A DNA stretch of 63,837 nt, counting the filler, from Dugesia japonica (lineage: Eukaryota), in the NCBI GenBank assembly GCA_001938525.1. It is 5 parts of 5 records of this genome, joined end to end, with 100 filler letters (N's around TTAATTAATTAA, not from the genome) between each part and the next. Parts side by side here need not be neighbours in the genome. Positions count along the whole stretch, not along the records: positions 37,863 to 55,447 come from MQRL01619908.1; 4 more parts are not named here. One strand, written 5' to 3'. The stretch's first letter is position 1. Every line of letters starts with the position of its first letter. The position numbers and the translations under genes are program-made. Under the pieces are notes generated by a model. The model was not told where the DNA came from, did not search any database, and worked only from the letters and a program-made list of their open reading frames with translations. Positions 40,054 through 40,990 of the stretch are shown one piece after another.

Positions 40054-40990
40054 TCATTGAAATTTAATTGCTAATACCCTACGTTCGATTACTTCCCGAC
40101 ACATAGGGCACTCATTTAAATTTAAAGCACACTTATAACAAGTTTTGAAATGTCCACATGGTAGAAATATGACCTCGATAGTTCCTTCCAGGCAAATGAT
40201 ACACTCATTATCTAATAATACCCACTCTTTTTCGTATTTTACTTAAGGTTCTACTAGTTTACGTGATCTTTAATATAATTCATATGGTGTGATTACTTCA
40301 GTCCCTTTCTCCATGACCGTTTGTTTTATTAGTTGCTTAATATTTTCCCGATTTGACTTTAGGATGTTATGCATCCTATTAATTTGTAATTCAGCTGCCA
40401 TTTCTATTCGGATCCGTGATATATTCCATTCGATTCTACATGCTGTTGTTCGCATTTCTTCCTCGTTGATTGGTTTTAATCTTGAAAAATTTGGGTGATG
40501 GAATATTTTCTTTGGTAATTTCTCTATTCCTTGCAGTAATAGAGTGTCTCGTTTGCACGTGGTGCATTTGATAACTTTATCTCTGGTTTGTTGGACGAGA
40601 TACAGTCCATCCATTGCTTTTTCCTTCAGGTTTGGTATTTCCCGGAAAGTTTTCTCTCTTTCCTCGATATTCCATTTGAGATCTCCCGGTAATGTTACTT
40701 GGATAGTTTGTATTACCATGCTCCATGGTAATTGGATCTCTAATGGTTCGTATACTCTAATCCAGTTCCATTGTACTTATGTACGGTTAAATAGATGATA
40801 ACAATGGATGTTAACAATTCTTCGCTGTATACTTCGGTACAAGATAAACACAGCTTTTTAGGGTGGACGCCGGATAGGCGCTTCAATTGGTAGTTCAATT
40901 CGTGACCCTTCGCAATATTTTTTGAACCAATTTTCCCGTCTTGATAACCATGTCATCTGGTCGTAAATAGCCTTTAGTGTGATTTTTAGT
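40054..40990 (-). pseudogene. Post-integrase extension ending in an IAP/MYLIP-type C3HC4 RING finger
   Basis: Manual translation 40054-40210: ECIICLEGTIEVIFLPCGHFKTCYKCALNLNECPMCREVIERR; same frame as ORF 40270-40719 across two stops. Confidence 0.85.

Follow-up and report, generated by a model that had tools for sequence, protein, structure and literature searches.

Does the RING finger that lies just behind the integrase of a giant planarian retroelement belong to the integrase protein? The initial annotation of a 63,837-nt stretch of Dugesia japonica DNA (hereafter the window) had read this RING as an E3 ligase domain appended to the integrase C-terminus through a ~250-aa linker and one frameshift.

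We arrive at a different reading, to which we assign a probability of about 0.85. An env-bearing Gypsy giant of the Burro kind carries a separate 398-aa IAP gene in its 3′ accessory region, and the RING forms the C-terminus of that gene's product; two DNA losses put it beside the integrase in this copy. The intact protein, predicted to be translated from a spliced RNA, would likely serve as an anti-apoptotic ubiquitin ligase. Directly supported are the stand-alone ORF, the combination of BIR and RING, the missing DNA and the purifying selection.

The RING finger and the element that carries it

The RING was found as reported, on the minus strand from 40203 to a stop codon at 40054-40056. Its match to the C3HC4 family zf-C3HC4_3 (Pfam PF13920, E 3e-16, 59.4 bits at a cut-off of 27) is no chance match, and the designation as IAP-type was correct: in sister copies of the element the same RING ends a BIR-bearing gene. 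The RING indeed shares its frame with a neighboring ORF, whose bounds are 40270-40776. This frame had been said to cross two further stops on its way to the integrase; the count is four from the integrase end down to the RING (first bases 40860, 40779, 40272 and 40245), and the integrase is in another frame.

The window contig MQRL01619908.1 (37863-55447) is filled by one decayed giant Ty3/Gypsy element on the minus strand, the strand of all element features given below. The order in the element is gag, a long uncharacterised region, a Bcl-2-like stretch, env, two proteases, a dUTPase-like stretch, reverse transcriptase, RNase H, integrase and, near the 3′ end, the IAP remnant. In the gag region (53171-54365), Pfam detects a Retrotrans_gag-like stretch (E 0.007) and CCHC knuckles (E 5e-11), of which there are three. 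The env gene (46457-47464) encodes a Monjiviricetes-type fusion glycoprotein (PF24664, E 1.9e-33); its frame is that of the Bcl-2-like ORF and of the first protease. Two tandem aspartic proteases (Pfam E 2.5e-7 and 6.8e-6), then a dUTPase-like stretch (PF00692, E 0.009), precede the reverse transcriptase and occupy 43523-45100. The reverse transcriptase and RNase H (42435-43598; RVT_1 E 5e-20, RT_RNaseH_2 E 4e-39) are broken; the integrase core with the start of its C-terminal domain follows at 40989-41918 (rve, E 5.5e-13). Both tandem proteases (43937-45100) have the motif DTGA, and this region is unbroken in sisters L050 and L051.

The Bcl-2-like stretch (47654-47908) is weak, with a Pfam score below cut-off (PF00452, E 0.072), no PDB match and no usable ESM Atlas match; the ubiquitin-like (Ubl) cargo of the window is weak as well (Pfam E 0.099). 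Sisters L050 and L051 each lack different multi-kb parts of the region corresponding to window 47510-53834; the window thus retains accessory polyprotein sequence lost from these two sisters, with possible ubiquitin-like stretches.

Downstream of the IAP remnant, the next accessory ORF (38937-39957) is frameshifted in the window; it has a splice-acceptor-like motif in front and is coiled-coil-like, then Pro-rich. A PAM2-like motif within it (39153-39188; Pfam PAM2 E 0.066), with 20 natural matches, is a possible binding site for poly(A)-binding protein. Match boundaries place a third junction at ~38937, between this ORF and a likely part of the 3′ LTR (37863-38940), a portion of which matches DNA upstream of gag in one sister. 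Elsewhere in the window, degenerate AT-rich repeat arrays occur at 12300-13400, 18200-18790 and 58450-59360. The first two, ~5.5 kb apart and in inverted orientation, are possibly the ends of a DNA transposon.

Integrase and RING in sister copies

A search of the same genome with window positions 39900-41200 (40 of 1150 candidates scored) returned 30 loci including the window's own; 29 of the 30 have a RING-type motif. The blastn matches of sisters to the window end at or near 40700. Upstream of this position, all sisters with a readable flank (25 of 29; four were unreadable) have a common coding sequence unlike that of the window, while the window piece 40700-40997 is present in sisters at another place. 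In the sister layout, the integrase end is followed by 0.70-0.79 kb that the window lacks, then by the 300-bp piece, by a further 3.31-3.46 kb without counterpart in the window, and by the RING part. Two junctions in the window correspond to the absent DNA: junction 1 (40983-41002) lacks ~0.75 kb (703-785 nt in eight sister stretches) and junction 2 (40699-40700) lacks ~3.3-3.45 kb (3306-3455 nt in six sister stretches), ~4.1 kb in total between integrase and RING. Two sisters depart from this layout. L033 has its own shorter layout or deletion (1445 nt from integrase to RING, with 25 stops in the integrase frame), and L046 has a different deletion, inside the IAP gene; the window junction is absent from both.

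A real fusion, with an E3 ligase tethered to the integrase as the initial annotation had it, would agree with the window frame that extends from just past the integrase end to the RING, and with junction 2 being in frame. The four stops in that frame and its difference from the integrase frame speak against it, as do the ~4.1 kb of extra DNA in sisters and a stop located just before the IAP Met. The distance from integrase to RING is 4558-5023 nt (4.56-5.02 kb) in five sister stretches versus 851 nt (0.85 kb) in the window. For a 121-nt probe over 40700, 40 of 215 candidates were scored, and none of the 39 other contigs among them spanned it; none of 150 scored RING copies (1130 candidates) had a RING frame longer than 399 aa, the length of the longest RING-bearing frame. 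As a feature of the family the fusion is refuted: integrase and RING were never in one frame across the copies tested, and sisters carry the RING in a separate stop-bounded ORF. We consider a genuine fusion hardly credible.

A single integrase-linker-RING reading frame is therefore abandoned, the stretch being three element pieces joined at ~40990 and 40700. The supposed frameshift at the integrase end is an artefact of the DNA missing at junction 1, and the ‘linker’ is made of two unrelated pieces, a pol-tail fragment and a middle part of the IAP gene. The first of these (40700-40997) is, as judged from its position in sisters, a 300-bp fragment of a long extension of the pol frame behind the integrase, outside the IAP gene. 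Given the sister layout, the lack of spanning contigs (0 of 39) and the absence of RING frames above 399 aa, we conclude that this fragment was joined in frame to the mid-gene piece by chance; junction 2, with an overlap of 2 nt, preserves the reading frame by coincidence.

In sisters the integrase frame continues for ~1000 codons as a low-complexity tail, a Cys-rich stretch and then a membrane protein (L052:3919-7275 and L048:4030-6102, both on the minus strand). Besides hydrophobic segments, the membrane protein has a TM-like stretch at its C-terminus and a PPxY-like motif (15 motif matches). The entire extension is in a single frame, interrupted by a few stops, in one copy, and a second copy is free of stops over 691 aa. 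No good Pfam match and no usable ESM Atlas match were found for the extension, which could end pol with a second envelope-type protein. Between the membrane protein and the IAP gene there is a coiled-coil-like ORF of 200 aa (L031:5045-5665, plus strand), absent from the window and with no convincing Pfam match.

Could the junctions be joins made by the assembler between repeat copies instead of deletions? The gene model would be unaffected. The assembly consists of 648,594 contigs, many sisters have large gaps of their own, and none of the listed contig pieces from three other runs bridges 40700. Such joins are nevertheless improbable: the 2-nt overlap at junction 2 appears too short for a usual assembler join, and private deletions are expected in old copies, which are 80-89% alike. 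Splicing as the origin of the junctions was rejected, there being no GT donor at junction 1 or 2. The sharp boundaries at 40700 and 38937 had also suggested an LTR or a separate insertion; this was rejected as well, for the coding flanks of sisters are continuous on both sides.

What the window retains of the IAP gene is a 3′ remnant of ~215 codons (40054-40700), delimited by the blastn boundary at 40700 and by alignment to full sister ORFs. It has neither the start nor the first BIR and contains two internal stops ahead of the RING; this copy is a dead remnant that cannot make the IAP protein. The initial statement that no BIR is visible holds for Pfam in the window, but the canonical BIR fell within the missing DNA and a degenerate second BIR persists at ~40480-40680.

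A stand-alone IAP gene

In sisters, the RING is the end of a separate intronless ORF of 398 aa with its own Met. The full ORF, with canonical BIR and RING, was present in four of 10 stretches chosen for long BIR frames, with an in-frame stop two codons before the Met; in one sister copy BIR and RING lie within a single stop-free frame of 339 aa. An in-frame stop occurs within five codons of the start in all 29 starts examined. The domain order is BIR, degenerate second BIR, UBA-like bundle and RING.

The first BIR of sisters matches Pfam PF00653 (E 5e-14) and has the pattern C-x2-C-x16-H-x6-C, which the window copy does not have. The second repeat has the pattern C-x2-C-x18-H-x3-C, and its window copy is without one putative zinc ligand. 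Assignment of this repeat (~40480-40680 in the window) comes from hhalign, the structure model and the alignment with sisters. The hhalign match to the BIR-UBA part of cellular IAPs is weak (probability 56.7%, E 1e-4); the repeat has no Pfam match, and a profile of the second BIR and the helical region finds no BIR in PDB by sequence. The three-helix region between second BIR and RING (window 40273-40400) pairs collinearly with the corresponding helices of cellular IAPs, a UBA in those proteins, and is provisionally termed UBA-like.

The sister protein aligns collinearly along its length with cellular IAP-like proteins (300 columns, hhalign probability 100%). Its best protein matches are multi-BIR IAP-like proteins at 30-45% identity, and its best PDB sequence matches are NAIP, cIAP1/2 and XIAP. 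Three distant proteins (P0012, P0039 and P0078; 25-28% identity) all have the degenerate second BIR and the RING, and two of them the first BIR. Word-based protein searches gave no match, and the viral and metagenome contigs searched contained no related loci. Among structures in BFVD the best matches of the IAP are viral IAPs (E down to 2e-12).

For the sister IAP, a single-sequence fold reached a mean pLDDT of 36.6 versus 70.7 for an alignment-based fold, the alignment containing cellular IAPs. The alignment-based model has four confident blocks. The first, the BIR, is predicted to fold like XIAP BIR2 and the DIAP1 BIRs and superimposes on BIRC6 (Z 14.2, rmsd 2.1 over 90 residues). Residues 190-260 form a second zinc-finger block (Z 5.7 to Pml39), and residues 280-330 a three-helix block with a weak similarity to RuvA domain III (Z 5.3-5.5); assignment of these two as second BIR and UBA-like bundle is weak and they may be labeled so provisionally. 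The modeled RING resembles those of IDOL, BIRC7 and MDM2 (Z 7.5-8.7, highest for IDOL). A predicted RING homodimer scored 0.07, which we counted neither way.

The gene is under purifying selection, as judged from pairwise dN/dS among 33 distinct copies: 0.14 in the RING, 0.20 and 0.22 in the two BIRs and 0.30 in the stretch separating the BIRs (as the copies are related, neither counts nor pairs are independent). All eight RING ligands are retained in 21 of 30 fully covered copies, and most copies keep all four zinc ligands of the first BIR. It is very improbable that the IAP is recently captured host DNA, a passenger devoid of function. The identity of 30-45% to multi-BIR IAP-like proteins speaks for such a capture; on the other side are the fixed position of the IAP in many element copies, the dN/dS values of 0.14-0.30, the intronless ORF, the conserved acceptor and stop, and the recurrence of this degenerate second BIR in three distant relatives.

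The RING ends in an unusual way. Arg follows the last RING Cys in 26 of 29 copies. The tail after this Cys has 14 residues in 25 of 29 copies versus 13 in 95 of 116 homologues; position +11 is Ile or Val in 24 of 25 copies versus Phe or Tyr in 103 of 116 homologues, with Phe found at +13 instead. The standard tail of 13 residues with an aromatic at +11, a trait of the RING-IAP subgroup and not of all IAPs, is therefore not the tail of this protein. The tail aromatic is required for IAP RING dimers. With a tail one residue longer and its aromatic moved by two positions, the RING may or may not have dimer-dependent E3 activity.

Signals around the ORF fit expression from spliced subgenomic mRNAs. 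A YAG occurs 3-4 nt ahead of the IAP ATG in 28 of 31 starts and 1-7 nt ahead of the ATG of the next ORF in 27 of 27; AATAAA follows the IAP stop within 15 nt in 25 of 34 cases (in AT-rich DNA and without a chance control). From these motifs, we think it probable that the acceptor 3-4 nt before the IAP ATG serves for a spliced subgenomic mRNA. In five RNA runs there were 3-32 reads per run, mostly partial fits and with no joints, too sparse to judge expression. Consecutive 3′ accessory ORFs have in common a conserved pyrimidine tract with AG immediately ahead of their ATG, as seen at window 39958-39975 and at the IAP starts of sisters.

The roles proposed for the BIR and RING follow known IAP biology. 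An intact element would most likely produce the IAP protein from its spliced subgenomic RNA; by analogy with XIAP, cIAP, DIAP and baculoviral IAPs, the first BIR would, somewhat more probably than otherwise, bind caspases or IAP antagonists and the RING recruit E2~ubiquitin. Acting with the Bcl-2-like domain, the IAP might prevent the death of a cell that is producing particles. We infer that the protein acted against apoptosis as an E3 ligase.

The main rival to this mechanism accepts the gene as described and has it act on ubiquitin signalling of an immune or NF-kB type, or serve as a decoy directed at host IAPs, without a caspase block. Signalling is where DIAP2 and the cIAPs act, and direct caspase inhibition is lacking in many baculoviral IAPs; such a role would also suit the UBA-like helices ahead of the RING, the degeneration of the second BIR and the non-standard RING tail. 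We regard it as the less likely one, considering that the first BIR retains four zinc ligands in most copies and is modeled with a fold like XIAP BIR2 and the DIAP1 BIRs. The Bcl-2-like domain of the same element, weak here and described for Burro (PMC6431247, in the part available), also points to apoptosis.

The IAP gene among Burro elements and known IAPs

The available part of PMC6431247 describes planarian Burro/GYPSM1 elements, giant Gypsy-like LTR elements with two to three Gag knuckles and Ubi/SUMO-like, BCL2-like and BIR cargo. Their env is mononegavirus-like and in frame between BCL2 and PR, a dUTPase is located between PR and RT, and MATH/TRAF and ankyrin motifs also belong to the kind, MATH varying among its elements. 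An interference of Burro with apoptosis and ubiquitination in the host is proposed in the same text, which lists BIR as a motif, mentions RING only under AIR1 and cites Grohme 2018 and Jurka 2007 on Burro/GYPSM1. Elsewhere, in the parts available, BURRO1 is characterized as an abundant, active, PIWI-controlled element (PMC8532177) and Burro is listed by size only (PMC10175614); the accessible text of PMC13524379 has no whole-word mention of Burro, Schmidtea, BIR, RING or ubiquitin. In the literature searched, so far as its texts were accessible, we found no description of an integrase-RING fusion or of a full BIR-RING ORF; Grohme 2018 or Jurka 2007 may already show the latter.

The window element matches the Burro kind, an assignment made by domain layout. 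Shared features are the Ty3/Gypsy order PR-RT-RH-IN; a gag with three CCHC knuckles heading a long polyprotein frame (broken by decay in the window); a mononegavirus-type env in the frame of its Bcl-2-like and PR neighbors; a dUTPase-like stretch between PR and RT, below cut-off and in the expected place; and a BIR, present in sister copies and gone from the window copy. Candidate BCL2-like and Ubi/SUMO-like stretches are weak in the window. The frames of the window scanned with Pfam gave no match to MATH/TRAF, ankyrin or midasin, in a copy that has deletions. Tandem proteases are not mentioned in the Burro section of PMC6431247, as far as it was available, and neither is a complete BIR-BIR-UBA-RING gene with its own ORF and splice acceptors. 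As for the length criterion of more than 25-30 kb with long LTRs, the window element has 17.6 kb on its contig plus at least 4.1 kb missing, with both ends running into gaps.

The claim of an E3-integrase fusion thus falls, as a decay product of one copy. The notion of an anti-apoptotic, ubiquitin-related toolkit gains support, as sisters hold a BIR-BIR-like-UBA-like-RING gene under purifying selection. It is not new: cargo of BIR, BCL2-like and Ubi/SUMO-like type has been described for Burro/GYPSM1 (PMC6431247, in the part available). The Bcl-2-like and Ubl scores of the window are weak. The BIR ‘motif’ of Burro becomes a whole selected IAP gene with RING, its own ORF and a splice-acceptor-like site, in at least 150 places in the genome. 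The link of Burro to apoptosis and ubiquitination, proposed in the accessible part of PMC6431247, is now testable with one 398-aa protein. The result is an increment on known Burro cargo and no new system.

More tentatively, Burro-type elements may resemble complex retroviruses, in which case a very large gag-env-pol polyprotein would be followed by a series of 3′ accessory genes, each spliced on its own. One such gene would be a complete BIR-BIR-UBA-RING ligase which, with the Bcl-2-like domain, could act at two levels against the death of the host cell; large DNA viruses are otherwise the known carriers of such equipment.

Among cellular IAPs, XIAP, cIAP1/2 and DIAP2 end in the order BIR-BIR-UBA-RING, and the element IAP matches them in a collinear profile over 300 columns. 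Like the IAP family, it ends in a C3HC4 RING whose last Cys is followed by Arg. In contrast to the cellular proteins, it has a degenerate second BIR, no CARD, ~65 extra N-terminal residues, a RING tail one residue longer with a shifted aromatic, and a retroelement as carrier. Viral IAPs (of baculoviruses, nudiviruses, nimaviruses, entomopoxviruses and mollusc herpesviruses) are similar in being virus-borne proteins of 250-500 aa with BIR(s) and RING; their hosts are large DNA viruses, whereas the element IAP is carried by a reverse-transcribing element, behind a splice-acceptor-like motif.
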